Source of the DNA: a virus
Taxonomy: Duplodnaviria; Heunggongvirae; Uroviricota; Caudoviricetes
DNA length: 10,859 nucleotides
IMG/VR virus record: IMGVR_UViG_3300003267_000376
Direction: 5' to 3' (one strand)
Positions 1 to 10,038 of the stretch are shown piece by piece (within the stretch, counting starts at the first letter, position 1; each line of letters opens with the position of its first letter). A program made the translations under genes and the position numbers. Below the pieces are notes generated by a model, which saw only the letters and a program-made list of their open reading frames with translations, was not told where the DNA came from and ran no database searches.

Positions 1-102
1 GGTGAGAGAGGCACACAAGAATTCCCCGCACAGCCACCATGCCTTGCAGCAGGGTGGCATGCTCTGCTACGCTAGGCGGCACAGGCCTGTCTGCTCGCTC
101 CG

Positions 103-147
103 CCGGCCCCCTCGTTACGTGACGGTCGCGAGGGGGTCCGGTTTTTT
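103..147 (+). terminator. Intrinsic terminator
   Basis: CCGGCCCCCTCG (103-114) pairs with CGAGGGGG(T)CCGG (129-141), 12 bp with one bulge, followed by T6 (142-147). Confidence 0.8.
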
Positions 148-158
148 CTCAAAAATGC

Positions 159-186
159 TTGCCAGCTGTGCGGGGTGTGCTATACT
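159..186 (+). promoter_or_regulatory. Sigma70-type promoter with extended -10 (P1)
   Basis: TTGCCA (159-164), 16-bp spacer, TG-C-TATACT (-10 at 181-186), just after a terminator and an A-tract. Confidence 0.75.
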
Positions 187-196
187 GTCAGACAGT
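184..196. promoter_or_regulatory. Palindromic operator copy 1 (ACTGTC-A-GACAGT)
   Basis: Perfect 6+1+6 palindrome overlapping the -10 box and predicted start of P1; the core recurs at four other promoters. Confidence 0.7.
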
Positions 197-375
197 TGGT
201 GGGTCGATGGCAGCCGGTCGCAAGGCCGTTCGCGTAAGCTAGCGGATCCCTCGTTCGGTCAGCCTTCCCTCGCTGATCGAGTGGACTCTGAAGGTCACCG
301 CTAGGCCCACCAACCATTGCACAGGGTCCTCCTCTGACCATGATGCCGGGTGGTCCTCCGTTCCACCCGGCATTG
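194..375 (+). ncRNA. Candidate structured non-coding RNA with pyrimidine-rich anti-SD-like loops
   Basis: Starts at the predicted P1 start site. 11-bp closing stem 195-205/304-314; GCAA-capped hairpin 215-228; stem 240-245/298-303; 9-bp hairpin 255-280 (loop CUUCCCUC); hairpin 325-339 (loop CUCCUCU); 11-bp hairpin 343-373 (loop UCCUCCGUU). No convincing CDS. Confidence 0.6.
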
Positions 376-384
376 TGGTAGAAT
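376..384 (+). promoter_or_regulatory. Extended -10 promoter for a leaderless operon
   Basis: TG-G-TAGAAT (376-384); the ATG at 391 sits at the expected start site and has no SD. Confidence 0.6.
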
Positions 385-390
385 CAAGTC

Positions 391-699
391 ATGGCACATC
401 TGAAGGACCTCCTGGTGCATGGCACCATTAGCAGCTACACCAATGGCCGCTGTCGCTGTGACGACTGTCGCCGCGCCATGCGCACCTACACCGCCGCCCG
501 CCGGGCGCGCTTCAAGAACGACCCCTCCCGCATCCCGAGCTGGGCCCATGGCACCGAGGGGGGCTACGTCAACTACTCCTGTCGCTGTGACCGCTGCCGG
601 GCCGAGCACACCCGCTACACCCGCGTTGCCAACCATCTCAAGGGCATCCATATTCCTGGTCGACGTGCCTATTGGCGCCAGCGCGAGGAGCAGCGATGA
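391..699 (+). CDS. Small basic protein with two HG-x-Y-x-CRCxxCR putative zinc-binding repeats
   Basis: HGTISSYTNGRCRCDDCR and HGTEGGYVNYSCRCDRCR; 102 aa; stop overlaps the next ATG (ATGA). Confidence 0.85.
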   Translation: MAHLKDLLVHGTISSYTNGRCRCDDCRRAMRTYTAARRARFKNDPSRIPSWAHGTEGGYVNYSCRCDRCRAEHTRYTRVANHLKGIHIPGRRAYWRQREEQR

Positions 700-896
700 C
701 CCGACACAATCTGTTGACCGATAAGATCGAGCGGATTCGGCTGGACCGCTGGGACCGCCTAATGCGCGAGGGCGGCAAGTTCCCTTGCGGCGATTGCGGC
801 CAGATGGTCACGGCCACCGAACTCCATACATGGGACGACTGCCGGAAGTGGGAGGCCGCCGAGTACGCCCGCCTGATGCGCGAGCGGCAGCCATGA
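696..896 (+). CDS. Small putative zinc-finger protein (CxxC...H...C), 66 aa
   Basis: ATGA overlaps at both ends, GAGGAG upstream, motif CGDC...HTWDDC. Start placed at ATG 696. Confidence 0.7.
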   Translation: MTRHNLLTDKIERIRLDRWDRLMREGGKFPCGDCGQMVTATELHTWDDCRKWEAAEYARLMRERQP

Positions 897-1180
897 CCAA
901 TCGTGAAGTCTGGCACGGTCGCTATTCGACCTACATCCAGTACCACTGTCGCTGTGAGGCGTGCTGTCGCGATGCGGCGCGCTATCGTCGTGAGCTGCGT
1001 GCCAAGCGCGCGCAGCTGGGGGTGGTCATGGTCGGTCCGCGCAAGGGCCAGGAGCCAGAGCATGGCATCTACCGCTACCAGCGCTATGGATGTCGCTGTG
1101 AGATCTGTCGCACCGCCCAGCGCGATGTCTCCCGCGCCTATCGGGCGCGCCGGCGTGAACGCACCGGCAAGGATCGCTAG
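893..1180 (+). CDS. Paralogue of 391..699 with two HG..CRCxxC repeats, 95 aa
   Basis: HGRYSTYIQYHCRCEACCR and HGIYRYQRYGCRCEICR; ATG 893 overlaps the upstream stop. Confidence 0.85.
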   Translation: MTNREVWHGRYSTYIQYHCRCEACCRDAARYRRELRAKRAQLGVVMVGPRKGQEPEHGIYRYQRYGCRCEICRTAQRDVSRAYRARRRERTGKDR

Positions 1181-3186: not shown

Positions 3187-3410
3187 TCGTCGCCTTCCTC
3201 GTCGCCCTTGGCAGCGTTGGGGCTGCCAGTCTGGCCATTGTGCTAGGCTGGATAGCCCCAGTCGCGATCCGGCTGGATCCCGTCACCAGTCTGGGCGCGC
3301 TCTGCCTCTTCATCGCGCTCGTCGCCCAGCTGTATCTGCTGCTTGGAGGACGCGATGTTGAACCTGGTCCTGGCATTGGTCATGGCCCTCGCGCCGGGGA
3401 CCACCCATGA
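3150..3410 (+). CDS. Small two-TM membrane protein (holin-like)
   Basis: Basic N-terminus, two hydrophobic segments ([24 protein letters not shown]; [19 protein letters not shown]), GGAG SD; precedes a cell-wall-enzyme-like gene. Confidence 0.6.
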
Positions 3411-3777
3411 GATACCGGCGACCGCCGGCCGACTTCCTGCATTTCGCATTTCGGGTACGGCCTCGCACTACCATGGGACTCGTGGTTTCATTGGACAAGC
3501 TACGGTTGCCTTGCCTGGTGTCCTGGGCGGTGCATATACGGGGCGAGCCCATGGATATGTGGTGGTATGCGCGGATCGGTGCGCTACGTTGCCTGTGGTG
3601 GATTTCTGCCAGTGCTACTGGGGGACGGCCCAGCAACGTGTGGTGGATCTCTCGGATGCCGCCTGGCAGGCGGTGACCGATGCGCCGTTCAGCACCGGCC
3701 TCATCCACGTCACGATGCATTCGGTACTAGGACCATCGTCTCAGCCGCCAGCTATTCCCAATACTGCGATGCGGTGA
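3355..3777 (+). CDS. Signal-peptide protein with RlpA-like double-psi beta-barrel (lytic transglycosylase / expansin-like), 140 aa
   Basis: SD GGAGG; hydrophobic N-terminus [13 protein letters not shown]; DPBB motifs [31 protein letters not shown]. Confidence 0.75.
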
Positions 3778-3792
3778 TATACTGTCTGACAG
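3755..3792 (+). promoter_or_regulatory. Promoter of the tRNA operon (P4) with operator copy 4 (CTGTC-T-GACAG)
   Basis: TTCCCA (3755-3760), 17 bp, TG-A-TATACT (-10 at 3778-3783); palindrome at 3782-3792. Confidence 0.75.
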
Positions 3793-3843
3793 GTGGGATC
3801 GTCACCTTCGTACCAGCCCGGGCGGAGTGTTTCGATCTCACCT
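3791..3843 (+). other. Long 5' hairpin leading the tRNA operon transcript
   Basis: AGGTGGGATCG (3791-3801) pairs with CGATCTCACCT (3833-3843), 11 bp with one G-U; inner stem CAC(C)TTCG/CGGAGTG; begins at the predicted start site. Confidence 0.55.
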
Positions 3844-3849
3844 TTGCAA

Positions 3850-3921
3850 TCCGGCGAGCCTGGGTGGCGCGGTGGTCTCCAAAACCATTAGCCGTGGGTT
3901 CGACTCCCACCGCCGGTGCCA
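3850..3921 (+). tRNA. trnW: tRNA-Trp (CCA), atypical short D-arm
   Basis: Anticodon arm GTGGT-CTCCAAA-ACCAT, T-arm GTGGG-TTCGACT-CCCAC, G73 plus encoded CCA; acceptor CCGGCG/CGCCGG with U.U at 1:72. Confidence 0.85.
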
Positions 3922-3925
3922 TTCT

Positions 3926-4001
3926 TGCGGCGTAGCTCAGCTGGTAGAGCGGGGGACTCATAAGCCCTGTGTCGTCGGTTCGAATCCGACCGCCGCAACC
4001 A
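3926..4001 (+). tRNA. tRNA with CAT anticodon (elongator Met or lysidine Ile2; not a canonical initiator)
   Basis: Full cloverleaf: TGCGGCG/CGCCGCA, GCTC/GAGC D-stem, loop CTCATAA, GTCGG-TTCGAAT-CCGAC, A73, CCA. Lacks the three G-C pairs at 29-31 and the C1:A72 mismatch of fMet. Confidence 0.92.
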
Positions 4002-4002
4002 T

Positions 4003-4077
4003 GGGCCAGTAGCTCAACGGCAGAGCAAGGGACCCTTAACCCCTTGGTTGGAGGTTCGAATCCTCCCTGGCTCACCA
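4003..4077 (+). tRNA. trnK: tRNA-Lys (CTT) with C33
   Basis: GGGCCAG/CTGGCTC, GCTC/GAGC, anticodon loop CC-CTT-AA, GGAGG-TTCGAAT-CCTCC, A73, CCA. Confidence 0.88.
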
Positions 4078-4078
4078 C

Positions 4079-4107
4079 TTGACCTAATGTCTGACATCTG
4101 CTATACT
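4079..4107 (+). promoter_or_regulatory. Near-consensus sigma70 promoter (P5) with operator copy 5 (ATGTC-T-GACAT) in the spacer
   Basis: TTGACC (4079-4084), 17 bp, TG-C-TATACT (-10 at 4102-4107); palindrome at 4088-4098. Confidence 0.8.
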
Positions 4108-5080: not shown

Positions 5081-5095
5081 ATGATCAGGTATAGT
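5067..5095 (+). promoter_or_regulatory. Sigma70-type promoter (P6) of the packaging operon; no operator palindrome
   Basis: A6 tract (5058-5063), TTCACA (5067-5072), 17 bp, TATAGT (5090-5095). Confidence 0.75.
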
Positions 5096-5159
5096 GCGCT
5101 AGCGACGGAATCGCCAATTCGATACTGAACCGCAGCCACCTCCACCGGCGCGGTGCCCC

Positions 5160-5202
5160 GACAGGCGGGTAGATGTGAAAACGTCTACCCGCCTGTCTAT
5201 TT
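5160..5202 (+). terminator. 17-bp GAAA-capped hairpin followed by TATTT (attenuator/terminator-like)
   Basis: GACAGGCGGGTAGATGT-GAAA-ACGTCTACCCGCCTGTC (one U-G pair), ending about 12 nt before the SD of the QueD-like gene. Confidence 0.65.
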
Positions 5203-5218
5203 GTAGTTGGAGCTGGGT

Positions 5219-5584
5219 GTGTTCTTCACGATCACAGCGCGTCACGCGTTTGATGCGAGCCATCGACTGGATGAATCCCACAAGGGCTGCGGCCATCGCT
5301 GGGAAGTGACGGTCACCGCGCGGCAGCACTTCAACGCTTCCAAGCAGCGGTTGCCCGATGACGACCTGCAGGAGGCATTGGTCGAGCTGCTGACGCCGCT
5401 CTATAACCGCATGCTGAACGATATGTTGCCGGCGACGTCTGCCTCGCCGGAAGGTCTGGCGAGTTGGCTCGCCGAAATTTTGGCGTTGAAGTTCCCCGAT
5501 ATCACCGAGGTCACTGTGGCGGCCAGCTACGGTAAGACGGTGACCTACCACCGGGAACTGCGTCGGGTCGGAGGTCTCTTGTGA
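5219..5584 (+). CDS. QueD / 6-pyruvoyl-tetrahydropterin-synthase-like T-fold protein (divergent)
   Basis: FDASHRL, GCGHRWEVTV, LYNRMLNDML and SPEGLASWL align with FxAAH, HGH, LDHxxLND and TxExlAxW of QueD; GTG 5219 with GGAG SD. Confidence 0.8.
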   Translation: MFFTITARHAFDASHRLDESHKGCGHRWEVTVTARQHFNASKQRLPDDDLQEALVELLTPLYNRMLNDMLPATSASPEGLASWLAEILALKFPDITEVTVAASYGKTVTYHRELRRVGGLL

Positions 5585-5799
5585 GCGCTCGCGTGTTTTA
5601 TTGCACGAGCTGCCAATCCCCAACGATTGAACCGTTTGTCCTCAACGGCATCCGCTTGTGCGAGATTTGTGCTGAGGATGTCACGCCCCGCCGCGGAGGC
5701 GGGTTGGCGGGTGACTGGGCCGGGTTCCAGCAGCCGCGGATTGAACGTCGACAGCGCCGCCATCGTCATGGAGACCGCCCTGGCTACTATGAAGACTAA
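5581..5799 (+). CDS. CxxC...CxxC zinc-ribbon protein, 72 aa
   Basis: CTSC and CEIC; GTGA overlap with the QueD-like stop. Confidence 0.65.
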   Translation: MSARVFYCTSCQSPTIEPFVLNGIRLCEICAEDVTPRRGGGLAGDWAGFQQPRIERRQRRHRHGDRPGYYED

Positions 5800-6457
5800 G
5801 GGCCGGATTGAGTATCGACCGGTGACCCGTCGCGAGAGCTGGGTAGCACCCAGTGCGCTACGGCCCAATGCCTGGAATCCGAACCGCATGGACGACTTCA
5901 TGTACCAGAAGGAACTGGAGTCGATCAAGCGGTTCGGCTTTGCCGTACCTATTGTGGTGCGCTCCACCGGCACCGGGCTGGAGATCATCGATGGGGAGCA
6001 TCGCTGGCGTGCCGCCCAGGAGCTCGGTCTTGATCAAGTCCCGATCTGGGATCTGGGGCTAATCAGTGATATTGACGCCAAACAGCTGACCATCGTCCTC
6101 AATGAAACCCGGGGCGCAGCCGACCGCGACAAGCTCTCCGCCCTCATCCAGGACCTGCTCATCAGTGAGCCCACCCCGTCCCTGCAAGCGGTACTGCCGT
6201 TTAGCGAGGAGGCATTCGCGGAACTCGCCAACCTGCCGGCGTTCGATTGGCAGGAGCTCGAATCGCAGGTGCAGCGCACCAGCGATGAACGATCGCAATG
6301 GGTCGAGCGGCTGTATCGGCTACCAGCCGATGTGGCTGAAGTCCTTGATCAGGCGGTCAGCAAAGTGAAGGACAACGTCAAGCGAGAGCTTGGTGACGAT
6401 CTCGTCGACTGGCAGGCGCTCGAAGTACTCGCTGCGGATTACCTTGCAGGTGGATAG
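5789..6457 (+). CDS. ParB/Sulfiredoxin N-terminal-domain protein, 222 aa
   Basis: PNAWNPNRM, SIKRFGFAVPIVV and IIDGEHRWRAA are ParB-N motifs; start placed at ATG 5789. Confidence 0.88.
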   Translation: MKTKGRIEYRPVTRRESWVAPSALRPNAWNPNRMDDFMYQKELESIKRFGFAVPIVVRSTGTGLEIIDGEHRWRAAQELGLDQVPIWDLGLISDIDAKQLTIVLNETRGAADRDKLSALIQDLLISEPTPSLQAVLPFSEEAFAELANLPAFDWQELESQVQRTSDERSQWVERLYRLPADVAEVLDQAVSKVKDNVKRELGDDLVDWQALEVLAADYLAGG

Positions 6458-6645: not shown

Positions 6646-7153
6646 TTACGACCAGCTCGAGCGCGAATTCGTAACCGGCAACGTCTCCATTCGCTCGCTC
6701 GCAGCCAAGCACAACATGAGCTTCAGTGCGGTGGCGGATCAGTCGCGCAAGCGCAAGTGGGTCGAGAAGCGTGAAGACTACCGCGGTTCGCGGGCCATCA
6801 AGGTCTACGAGCGGAACACCGAGAAGTTCGCCAACGATGAGGCGCAGCTGCGCCAGGAGATGATCACGCTGTTGCGGGCCACCATGGCGCGCTGGGCCCA
6901 GCAGCTAGCCGATCCCAACAAGCCGCCGATGCTCAATGCCAAGGAGTTCGTAGAGGTCATCAAGCAGATGACGCTCATGCTCGGTGGCGTCACCGAGCGG
7001 CGAGAGGAGAAGCACCTTGGCCTTAACCTCAACGTCGGGGGACCAGGCGGATTGGAACCCGACTTCCTCAAACGACTTCTGGAAGAGTCTCGGCGGCATG
7101 TCTCCGGAGAACTGGAAAGCTCTGCAGGAGATGGCTCTGAGGGGTCTAGCTAA
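6632..7153 (+). CDS. terS: Terminase small subunit
   Basis: N-terminal HTH pattern (DYDQLEREFVTGNVSIRSLAAKHNMS..V...SRKRKW), helical middle, directly upstream of and overlapping TerL. Confidence 0.8.
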   Translation: MTKVDYDQLEREFVTGNVSIRSLAAKHNMSFSAVADQSRKRKWVEKREDYRGSRAIKVYERNTEKFANDEAQLRQEMITLLRATMARWAQQLADPNKPPMLNAKEFVEVIKQMTLMLGGVTERREEKHLGLNLNVGGPGGLEPDFLKRLLEESRRHVSGELESSAGDGSEGSS

Positions 7154-8489
7154 GGACGACATCTTCGCCTTTGGCGAGTATGTCTTCGGTCATGTCCCGG
7201 CTCCGCATCATCGCGAGATGGTGGAGTTCCTCCTCCAGGCGATCGAGTCGAAGGAAAGCGTGGTCGTCCTTGAACCGCGCGGACACGCCAAGACGACCTG
7301 GGCCAACACCATCCTAATGACCTGGCTCATTGCCCGGAACCCGCATCTGCGGGTAGGGATGATCAGTAACACCTATAAGCAGGCAGCCGACTTCAGTCGC
7401 GCCATTCGCTGGACGATGGAGGCCAATGAGCGCTTCCGCGAGGTGTTCGGTGATCTGACCGCGGGCTCGCCGAAGATGACCGATGCCGCCTGGATTCTGC
7501 CCGGCTCGAAGATGGCGGGCACCAACAACACCACCATGTACGCCCAGGGGGCGGGTGGCGCGATCATTTCAAAGCGATTCGATCTGATCCTGTGCGACGA
7601 CATCCTCGACGAAGAGAACACGGTCAACATCGAGCAACGCGAGAAGGTCGACGGTTGGTTCTGGAAGACGCTGCGGCCCTGTCTGGTGCCGGGTGGCACG
7701 ATGCTGGTCATTGGAACTCGGTGGGCTGAAGGTGACCTGTACGAACAGCTTATCAACCCACCCGAAAAAGAAGGCCGCGGCTGGACCCATTTGATTCGGG
7801 GTGCTCTAACGGAGAGCGAGGACGGGGAGCTATCCGCCTTGTGGCCAGAGGTCTGGCCCGTCCCCAAACTCCTCGAAGAGCGGGCGAACATGGGATCGGA
7901 CCTGTTTGCCTGTTCTTATCTCAATGACATTTCGGGCCTGATGCGGGGCAACGTCTTCCAGCGGGAATCGTTTCAGTACTTCGACCAGCTCGATCCCAAT
8001 AAGCGTTACACCATTCGGATGGGAGTCGACCTCGCCAGCTCTGAGAAGGAGCGAGCCGACTACACCGCCCGGGTCACGACTGCAGAAGATGAGGAGGGGA
8101 ACTTCTACGTCTTAAGCGTTTACCGCGATAAGCGCGAGACCCATCATGCGGAGTTTGTAGTAGATGGTTGGTTGGCGTACCCACACATGGACCTGGTCAT
8201 CGTCGAGAACCAGCAATTCCAGTCGACCCTCGTCCAACAACTCATGGCCGATTACGCCCGCATTCCAGTCCTCGGCAAAAAGTCCGACGTGGACAAGACG
8301 ACGCGTGCTCGAGCGGCAGCCGCGCGTTATGAGGGGCACAAGGTTTTCCACCACCGCTCGCTCGCTGGGTCCGAATTCGAGACGGAGCTGCTTAGCTTCC
8401 CGAAGGGCCACGATGACATGGTGGACGCTCTTGGATTCAGCATGGATTTGGGAGCCTCCACCTTTGTATTTGGAAAGTTGCGTCGATGA
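7098..8489 (+). CDS. terL: Terminase large subunit
   Basis: Walker A PRGHAKTT, Walker B LILCDD, motif III IGTRW, nuclease motifs GVDLA and HDDMVDA; start uncertain (7098 or 7131). Confidence 0.96.
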   Translation: MSPENWKALQEMALRGLAKDDIFAFGEYVFGHVPAPHHREMVEFLLQAIESKESVVVLEPRGHAKTTWANTILMTWLIARNPHLRVGMISNTYKQAADFSRAIRWTMEANERFREVFGDLTAGSPKMTDAAWILPGSKMAGTNNTTMYAQGAGGAIISKRFDLILCDDILDEENTVNIEQREKVDGWFWKTLRPCLVPGGTMLVIGTRWAEGDLYEQLINPPEKEGRGWTHLIRGALTESEDGELSALWPEVWPVPKLLEERANMGSDLFACSYLNDISGLMRGNVFQRESFQYFDQLDPNKRYTIRMGVDLASSEKERADYTARVTTAEDEEGNFYVLSVYRDKRETHHAEFVVDGWLAYPHMDLVIVENQQFQSTLVQQLMADYARIPVLGKKSDVDKTTRARAAAARYEGHKVFHHRSLAGSEFETELLSFPKGHDDMVDALGFSMDLGASTFVFGKLRR

Positions 8490-8695
8490 GCAGAATCCGT
8501 CAATGGCAATCGATCGAATTCCGGGACGGTACGCGGGAGGTCCCCGATCATTTGGCGATCTTGATGCGTGGTCTGGAGACTTTCCGACTTACCTATCGTG
8601 AGGCGCTCGAACAGGTCAATGGCGGGTTTTTGCGCGATTGGCTTAACGGCAAGCAGGATGATCTCCTGCGCCGCCATTTCCGTGAGAATAGCTAA
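8486..8695 (+). CDS. Hypothetical protein between TerL and portal, 69 aa
   Basis: ATGA overlap with TerL and TAATG overlap with portal. Confidence 0.75.
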   Translation: MSRIRQWQSIEFRDGTREVPDHLAILMRGLETFRLTYREALEQVNGGFLRDWLNGKQDDLLRRHFRENS

Positions 8696-10038
8696 TGGCT
8701 GGTATTTGGGATTTCATTCTGCGGCGTGACCGTCAGGCCACGCCCAAACGGCTGCCGAGCGCGCAGGCCACGGTGTTGACCACCCAAGGCCGGGTCCATA
8801 AGGCGCATGCCGCACTGTTCCGCAACTGGGCCGAGCATTCGGAGTGGATCCGCGCCGCGATCGACCTGCGTCGGAAGCAGGTCTCATCGGCCGAATGGGA
8901 CATCGTGGCCTTCGATCCCGATGTGAAGGTCGACAACCGTCGCCTGCAGCGTCGGATCAAGGAGCTATTCGATCGGCCCAATCCGGCGCTCGATTCATTC
9001 CGCTCCTTTATTGAGCCGGTGGTGGAGGATCTGCTCGTCCTTGACGCAGGGGTGATTGAAAAGGTCCGCAACCTCAAGAACGAGCCGCGTCAGCTATGGA
9101 CCGTGGACGGCGCCCAGGTGCGGGTGAGTGCAACCTGGGATGGCTCGGACCCCAACGAGGCGCGCTACTTCTGGTACCCCGATGGCTTCGAGCGTGCACG
9201 CTGGACCAATGATGAGATCGTGTACGTCATGGAGAACCCACGTAGCTACCTGCCGGTGGGGTTGTCCAAGATGGAAACGCTGAAGATGACGATCGATGCC
9301 GAGCTGGCGGGACATGAGTACAACCGCCGCCAGGTGCTGCAAGCGGCGCCGGATGGCATCTTCGACATGGGCGAAGGCGTGCGTCCCGAACAGGTTGACG
9401 AATTCGAGAATTACTGGAACACCGAGGTGGCCGGTCGCGGGGCGATCGCCTTTATCGGTGGCAGCAAGAACGCCAAGTTTATTCCCTTCCGCGCCAATAA
9501 CCGCGATATGCAGTTCTTGGAGTGGCAGATCTACCTTGTTCGCAAGGTCGCCGCAGTCTTCGGGGTGTCTCCCCAGGACTTAGGGTTGACGATGGACGTC
9601 AACCGCGCCAACGCCGAGCAGCAAGCGGAGAATACCGAAGACCGAGGACTGCGGCCACTGCTCGCCCTTATTCAAGACTATCTCACCCGTGAAATCGTGT
9701 GGGATGACGCCTTTGGCGGTCCCGCCAATAATCTCGCCTTCCGCTTTACCCGTCTGAACCTGAAGGAGACCCTCTCCAAGGCGCAGATCAATGAATTGGC
9801 CCTCGCCAAGGTGCCGTGGAAGACGATCAACGAAGCCCGCAAGGAAGACGGCCGCGAGCCGATCGGTCCTGACGGCGACGTGCTGATGTTTAACACCTCC
9901 ACCGGCGTAGTGAAGCTCGAAGACGTGCCCACTGCCCGAGAGGTGCTCGAAGCGAAGAAGCCTGCTCCTCGACCAGGCGGAGCGCCGGGATCCAACTCGG
10001 CTTCCTCAAAGTCTGGCGATCCGAGCGTCAAGGAGTAA
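8695..10038 (+). CDS. Phage portal protein
   Basis: 447 aa after TerL; portal-like segments (LLVLDAGVIEK, GLSKMETL, QFLEWQIYLVRKVAAVFGVSPQDLG, TINEARKEDGREPI). Confidence 0.93.
   Translation: MAGIWDFILRRDRQATPKRLPSAQATVLTTQGRVHKAHAALFRNWAEHSEWIRAAIDLRRKQVSSAEWDIVAFDPDVKVDNRRLQRRIKELFDRPNPALDSFRSFIEPVVEDLLVLDAGVIEKVRNLKNEPRQLWTVDGAQVRVSATWDGSDPNEARYFWYPDGFERARWTNDEIVYVMENPRSYLPVGLSKMETLKMTIDAELAGHEYNRRQVLQAAPDGIFDMGEGVRPEQVDEFENYWNTEVAGRGAIAFIGGSKNAKFIPFRANNRDMQFLEWQIYLVRKVAAVFGVSPQDLGLTMDVNRANAEQQAENTEDRGLRPLLALIQDYLTREIVWDDAFGGPANNLAFRFTRLNLKETLSKAQINELALAKVPWKTINEARKEDGREPIGPDGDVLMFNTSTGVVKLEDVPTAREVLEAKKPAPRPGGAPGSNSASSKSGDPSVKE

Follow-up and report, generated by a model that had tools for sequence, protein, structure and literature searches.

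Phages P1 and P4 encode structured immunity RNAs, c4 and CI, within early-operon leaders; processing releases these RNAs, and their loops pair around a downstream ribosome-binding site (RBS) of the same transcript. In phages L5, D29 and StarStuff the repressor-controlled early promoter Pleft makes an abundant, stable and toxic non-coding RNA (PMC5712189). Several hundred bases without a credible open reading frame (ORF) follow Pleft in L5 before the first early genes are reached, and the RNA of ~500 nt is processed to species of 100-400 nt; ~90% of the transcripts stop without an obvious classical terminator, the rest enter the genes, and the function of the RNA is unexplained (PMC5712189). 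The 6C sRNA (RF01066) needs no chaperone to bind G-rich RBSs, which it does through C-rich loops (Mai et al. 2019, PMC6486639). Here we describe a predicted non-coding transcript at positions 192-379 (plus strand) of a phage sequence, with its start placed at A192-A194 from the -10 box and its 3' boundary at the base of a hairpin (H6). Its anatomy is real and unusual, and it is a credible candidate for an early non-coding RNA of a phage. We consider it probably a functional RNA element of some sort; it is also an orphan, a prediction from a single genome.

The window, meaning the whole stretch of 10,859 nt that was analysed, came from an uncultured soil phage and contained genes for a large terminase (6984-8489), a portal (8695-10038) and a ParB-N protein (5627-6457), together with three tRNAs (3850-4077). 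Related portal and terminase proteins were encoded on ~100 IMG/VR contigs. Left of ~5200 the window had no counterpart in these contigs, which places the candidate RNA in a fast-evolving accessory region. Within these unconserved left 5 kb, sequence that is recent or neutral would be plausible, and this counts against a function for the RNA. A Logan contig (L082, run SRR1926130) was 100% identical to window positions 1-897 and reached 3970 nt further left, supplying context and no sequence variation relative to the window; besides this run, JGI samples 3300003319 and 3300003321 are sources of the DNA. The candidate RNA was found to lie within a 510-nt divergent intergenic region, with a leftward operon of small genes led by Shine-Dalgarno (SD) sequences on its left (promoter on the minus strand, L082 3949-3920) and rightward genes from 391 on its right.

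Several further features of the surroundings were observed. Two independent assemblies broke ~95 nt apart just left of the first base of the window (L082 3876-3971), a 58-kb JGI contig ending at L082 3876 and the window starting at L082 3971, with the gap spanned by the Logan contig; such adjacent breaks could mean that the genome ends, or has a terminal repeat, close to the intergenic region. The window encodes two paralogous small proteins (391-699 and 893-1180), each with two copies of HGT..GY....CRC..C (direct repeat family D1). These gave weak PHROG matches to families annotated as HTH, HNH or integrase, and among 5.8 billion proteins they had no relatives except the identical sequence. 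The leftward operon contained a 412-nt gene-free gap (L083 373-784, equal to L082 3093-3504, on the minus strand of the window genome) that begins with a terminator-like hairpin and ends, before the next gene, with a (CT)n run and a very strong SD, GGAGGAGGA; the gap gave weak, sub-threshold Rfam ar35 matches and may hold another non-coding element. Cassette repeats were also observed in this operon (L083 1409-1671, 3044-3312, 6362-6489 and 9928-10181), in the order hairpin, ATTGCCAAT...GCAACGCA...CACACGTAAGGAG, start codon, which have the TTGCCA hexamer in common with the -35 box of the candidate promoter and carry no sigma-70-like -10 box. At 5091-5219, ~115 nt of leader lie behind a promoter-like TATAGT (5091-5096) and hold a 17-bp GAAA-capped hairpin (5160-5197) and then UAUUU, just upstream of the start of a GGAG-led QueD-like gene; the arrangement resembles a structured leader serving the packaging operon.

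The sequence-only reading of this DNA had described a terminator followed by a strong promoter with an operator, and both were confirmed. The intrinsic terminator (102-148, plus strand) consists of a stem at 102-142 and a U6 tail at 142-147 (-31.1 kcal/mol, z -4.0) and is predicted to insulate the RNA unit from rightward transcription upstream. The promoter, P_RNA (159-186, plus strand), combines a -35 box TTGCCA (159-164), a 16-nt spacer, an upstream TG (178-179) and a -10 box TATACT (181-186). It agrees with the consensus at 10 of 12 positions and was the best sigma-70-like site of the region; the promoter scan returned 2 promoter-like sites against 0.3 expected. The palindromic operator ACTGTCAGACAGT (184-196, no strand assigned) lies over the predicted start site with its core GTCAGAC at 187-193. 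The motif GTCWGAC occurred at 5 sites in the window against 1.6 expected, and all five were within promoters.

No gene was observed upstream of the terminator at 102-148. An extended -10-like TGcTACGCT at 65-73 (window 65-148 corresponds to L082 4035-4118) could direct a start near 81 and a transcript of ~67 nt ending at this terminator. The putative transcript would begin ACAGG like the other two non-coding transcripts and would carry a C/U-rich single strand with CUCC, which makes window 65-148 a candidate for a second small RNA. A proposed sister RNA at L082 3926-4120 was rejected, its fold not being significant (z -1.6).

The only other promoter with the -10 box and operator of P_RNA was located at 3774-3796, where it drives the tRNA cluster. 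The two promoters have TGnTATACTGTCWGACAGkTGG in common, and both transcripts start with ACAG and continue into an 11-bp long-range stem formed with their own complementary 3' strand. Over its first ~20 bases the tRNA-cluster transcript resembles the candidate RNA, and its 61-nt leader (3789-3849; -28.9 kcal/mol, z -4.2) forms an 11-bp-closed hairpin from +3. This suggests that the promoter and 5' stem are a duplicated module. Neither of the twin units has a classical terminator ahead of the next promoter, with tRNA-Lys ending at 4077 and the next -35 box beginning at 4080, and with H6 ending at 379, where the next -10 box starts.

A different arrangement was seen at four promoters of the accessory region, each with its -10 box 6-8 nt upstream of an ATG: P_391 (376-393, plus strand; an extended -10 with TG at 376-377 and TAGAAT at 379-384, 6 nt before ATG 391), P_1208 (TATAGT, ATG 1208), P_2791 (TTGCAT-17-TATCGT, ATG 2791) and P_4116 (TTGACC-17-TATACT, ATG 4116). 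Because of this spacing their mRNAs are probably leaderless, which supports the earlier proposal that the first genes behind the neighbouring promoters are of this kind. No start codon lies where transcription from P_RNA is predicted to begin. The common design suggested by the twin units is an operator-controlled promoter, a stable RNA, and then a leaderless gene with its own promoter, and this layout is the strongest internal argument supporting a non-coding product.

The ~180 nt downstream of P_RNA had been described as lacking a credible coding sequence, and we found the same: no frame within 190-380 showed the signature of high GC3 and low GC2 that marks the real genes of this phage. ORFs of 11-53 codons are present at 207-242 on the plus strand and at 180-341 and 239-373 on the minus strand, and the small ORFs were rejected on codon-position GC. 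That a small protein is encoded on either strand is very improbable, as the coding GC3/GC2 pattern is absent in all frames, the start codons of the plus-strand mini-ORFs would be buried within the stems P1 or H6, the predicted transcript start lacks a start codon, and a promoter was not found on the minus strand.

The predicted fold of 190-378 on the plus strand reached -89.5 kcal/mol (z -4.29), with none of 200 shuffles as good, and it was better than that of the minus strand because of G-U pairs in the stems. An 11-bp closing stem and a GCAA tetraloop, both noted previously, were recovered with probabilities of 0.98 and 0.76. The closing stem P1 (195-205/304-314) encloses a 5' multi-branch domain (195-314, plus strand) that holds the GCAA hairpin H1 (215-228) and the hairpin H3 (252-283, 12-13 bp, probability 0.86); segment 192-316 had a z of -3.2, and the inner helices H2, H4 and P1b were uncertain (0.28-0.42). 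The 3' part contains a weak hairpin, H5 (322-336, plus strand), with the tract UCCUCCUCU at 327-335, and the hairpin H6 (337-379, plus strand; inverted repeat I14), with 17 bp including two G-U pairs and a 9-nt loop, UCCUCCGUU, at 354-362. H6 alone folded at -32.3 kcal/mol (z -6.1) and had a probability of 1.00 (338-378).

The sequence-only reading had counted three anti-SD-like loops, and two of these were robust: loop L3, CUUCCCUC (264-271, plus strand; unpaired probability 0.99), on H3, and UCCUCCGUU on H6, with hairpin probabilities of 0.86 and 1.00. The middle CCUCC hairpin, H5, did not hold up in the same way. It has 5 bp and presents, depending on context, either UCCUC (327-331) or CUCCUCU in its loop, with a probability of 0.73 in the short RNA versus 0.0 in the read-through transcript. 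The GC-normalised fold energy of the candidate ranked 5 of 2136 windows of its own genome (-2.8 SD, top 0.25%). Some coding windows of the phage fold as stably as the candidate RNA, and stability alone is thus not decisive.

The loop pattern was rarer. Three pyrimidine-rich hairpin loops with CUCC or CCUC were observed in 0 of 1000 dinucleotide shuffles and two such loops in 2 of 1000, and among 712 windows covering both strands of the 10.9-kb sequence only those overlapping the candidate region had at least two. In ~0.75 Mb of related phage DNA, both strands, the three-loop pattern occurred at no other place, and the two places with two loops that were checked fell within long ORFs, the terminase gene being one of these. 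CCTCC was modestly enriched (P about 0.03), as were pyrimidine runs of at least 9 (P about 0.008); these loop-pattern and enrichment statistics were designed post hoc, after the feature had been seen.

Homologues were sought among cultured phages, IMG/VR, JGI metagenomes, GTDB genomes and 151 Actinomycetota genomes, in collections that may leave out records very close to the window. Megablast and blastn, including its distant mode, found no homologue in 50,697 phage records, and the two flanking proteins, searched by tblastn and by a word-indexed protein search, matched just the same sequence from one soil sample. A covariance model built from the single sequence of the candidate RNA (R1) was applied with blastn and nhmmer to 80 portal-relative loci, and by itself to five full records of related phages (96-100% complete in three cases), five bacterial genomes and the 151 sampled Actinomycetota genomes, and found nothing in any of them. 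The strict form of the promoter-operator pattern gave 0 matches in IMG/VR. A promoter-operator 15-mer gave 57 matches there, all in unrelated DNA of 33-54% GC, and the three-loop pattern gave 182 loci in metagenome and GTDB contigs, all of them chance by blastn, nhmmer and R1; both sets were rejected. The sequence-only reading had not recognised a named family, and weak microRNA/lncRNA noise was all that cmscan gave for 1-600 against the full set of 4227 Rfam models (E<=10); nothing relevant came from scanning the window at gathering thresholds or L082 at E<=1. Identity as a tRNA, a tmRNA or a YrlA-like RNA was rejected, none being called by ARAGORN or the Rfam models.

An orphan sequence next to structural genes with ~100 relatives could simply be spacer DNA of a fast-evolving accessory region, with no dedicated RNA function and with incidental pyrimidine loops. 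The hairpins would then be punctuation of DNA or transcription, with H6, centred near -33 of P_391, possibly binding a protein as an inverted repeat or forming a partial roadblock that separates the two promoters. At the DNA level H6 is a perfect palindrome of 11 bp around a 9-bp spacer and overlaps the -35 region of P_391, which fits such a role, as do the fold energy, which is not unique within the genome, and the hairpin-plus-promoter cassettes that are also present in L083. However, a near-consensus, operator-controlled promoter firing onto 185 nt of non-coding sequence would be costly if useless, and P1 joins sequences 100 nt apart beginning at the 5' end of the transcript, as in the tRNA leader. 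G-U pairs lengthen the stems on the plus strand only, and the three-loop pattern is unique in the related phage DNA surveyed. We consider the absence of a dedicated RNA function unlikely.

Where the transcript ends bears on what it would do. As an intrinsic terminator H6 has the stem and lacks the U-tract, its tail being UAGAAUCAAGUC, and it was not called in the terminator scan. Read-through into gene 391 is likely because H6 lacks a U-tract, with the clear terminator of this phage having U6, and the discrete transcript of 120-180 nt that had been foreseen is unsupported for the same reason. Downstream, an SD-like AAGGA (403-407) precedes an alternative start, GTG 415 (403-417, plus strand), and AGGACCU at 404-410 is complementary to 324-330. 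In transcripts ending at 430, 460 and 520, GGGUCCU (324-330) paired with AGGACCU (404-410) with pair probabilities up to 0.99, replacing H5; this helix of 7 bp disappeared when 192-600 was folded.

Since this pairing covers the SD-like AAGGA before GTG 415, a role in cis, as a structured leader at the 5' end of the rightward operon (genes 391-1180), is a serious rival explanation. Transcripts from P_RNA would pass H6, and pairing of 324-330 with 404-410 would cover AAGGA and the first codons, leaving the long transcript translationally silent or attenuated while the short leaderless transcript from P_391 is translated; by analogy with P1 c4 and P4 CI, a processed piece could feed back on its own message. 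This explanation would account for the missing U-tract after H6 where the clear terminator has one, and for the strongly predicted helix that displaces H5. It also agrees with the choice of the gene caller, which starts the gene at GTG 415 with AAGGA upstream, and with the presence of a second structured leader in the phage, at 5091-5219, where the 17-bp hairpin precedes an SD-led gene. Against it, the helix is just 7 bp and is gone in the 192-600 fold, gene 391 has no need of P_RNA since an extended -10 promoter is well placed in front of it, a single loop of the three is employed and the 120-nt domain closed by P1 goes unexplained, and no riboswitch or leader family in Rfam was matched. We judge the cis leader rather unlikely.

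The explanation we tentatively favour is that of a phage RNA unit under repressor control that pairs with G-rich RBSs. Starting from the promoter, operator and terminator sequences, the predicted fold, the rare loop pattern and the lack of a coding signal, we infer how transcription, 3' end formation, stabilisation and each step of pairing would proceed. When the repressor that binds GTCWGAC is absent, the strong promoter at 159-186 would initiate at ~192-194. The transcript would fold at once, with the 11-bp-closed 5' domain leaving 1-3 free 5' nucleotides and the very stable 17-bp hairpin forming the 3' end, and both end structures would shield the ~185-nt RNA from decay. The RNA could reach this length if some transcripts stopped at the hairpin, or if read-through transcripts were trimmed in the manner of the tRNA cluster behind the twin promoter. 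Its two robust pyrimidine loops (CUUCCCUC and UCCUCCGUU) and the labile one (UCCUCCUCU) resemble the anti-SD of 16S rRNA and most likely would pair with G-rich RBSs, by analogy with the 6C sRNA in actinobacteria. The candidate targets are SD-led mRNAs of the phage or the host, or the RNA's own downstream message, and the leaderless genes of the phage would escape it.

SD sequences that could serve as targets are abundant around the locus. The leftward operon is filled with genes having AAGGAG or GGAGG as SD, and the GGAGGA reported previously was found at 3345-3350, before ATG 3355. In a duplex scan of the three loops against the window and the 10-kb leftward operon, each on both strands, no translation-start region rose above the coding background of -18 to -21 kcal/mol. 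The best duplex at a start region, a 9-bp match to GGAGGAGGAC before the gene at 785 of L083, was at chance level. Translational repression in trans, as proposed from the sequence, is thereby left unsupported by a standout start region; a trans model is possible through generic SD complementarity alone. Anti-SD repression in trans and a cis role on the read-through transcript appear to us about equally likely.

The most far-reaching form of the pairing explanation is a multi-loop anti-SD mimic that acts early in infection and silences SD-dependent host mRNAs and the SD-led leftward operon of the phage while the leaderless early genes are still translated. We regard this form as improbable. If true, a translation-mode switch would be encoded in one small RNA. 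Since leaderless genes surround the RNA and strongly SD-led genes make up the opposite operon, the idea of an RNA that acts on one mode of translation and spares the other is directly testable with reporters.

Among the known systems, the nearest architectural analogue is the Pleft RNA of L5 and D29, as the candidate RNA likewise lies directly downstream of an early promoter under predicted repressor control and has no credible ORF. The likeness does not extend to sequence: there was no blastn match to the L5 Pleft region, R1 found nothing on the right end of L5, and CCUCC is absent from the L5 Pleft RNA. The two also differ in that the L5 RNA is abundant and stable, whereas the candidate RNA is a prediction from sequence. 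We also observed that the published Pleft transcript region of mycobacteriophage L5 (L324; 51140-51672, minus strand) has GGGUUCGAUUCCCGAC at its 3' end, which is tRNA T-arm-like.

The shared layout raises the prospect of a stable, abundant early RNA that does not mask SD sequences and acts instead as a protein sponge or as a decoy that diverts a host nuclease or a defence system. The Pleft RNA with the same layout is toxic to its host (PMC5712189), and the 5' multi-branch domain with its GNRA loop goes beyond what an sRNA would require for base pairing. This prospect is weakened by the lack of sequence or model similarity to the L5 RNA, which has no CCUCC, and by the fact that Y RNA-like, 6S, tRNA-like and other Rfam models were unmatched, and we think such a role quite improbable.

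For an RNA that leads its own operon, P1 c4 and P4 CI provide the model. Their covariance model (C4, RF01695) gave no match at E<=10, and the candidate RNA has with its downstream start region one complementarity of 7 bp (324-330/404-410), which is strongly predicted in transcripts ending at 430-520 and lost in the longer fold. The cuckoo/alpha-r14 RNAs, with their CCUCCUCCC loops, and RNAIII of S. aureus resemble the candidate in placing several loops with an anti-SD-like motif in one RNA. They belong to another host phylum, and unlike them the candidate has no U-tailed terminator; it has no Rfam match. The exact cuckoo motif CCUCCUCCC is absent from the candidate RNA, in which the nearest tract is UCCUCCUCU at 327-335.

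For the favoured pairing with RBSs, the nearest mechanistic analogue is the 6C sRNA, which is likewise small and highly structured, is linked to the same proposed pairing mechanism and occurs in Actinobacteria, also the likely host phylum of this phage. The RF01066 model was not matched by the candidate RNA, and R1 found nothing in the 151 sampled Actinomycetota genomes. The loops also differ in composition, those of the candidate being mixed C/U with a CCUCC core rather than runs of C. The 6C sRNA consists of two conserved hairpins with C-rich loops, whereas the candidate has three loops and a 120-nt multi-branch domain, is encoded by a phage and is controlled by an operator. If the RNA is real, it would be a phage counterpart to chaperone-independent sRNAs with C-rich loops such as 6C, and its phage would be, after L5/D29 with Pleft, a second and unrelated actinobacteriophage in which the strongest early promoter under repressor control is devoted to a stable non-coding RNA.
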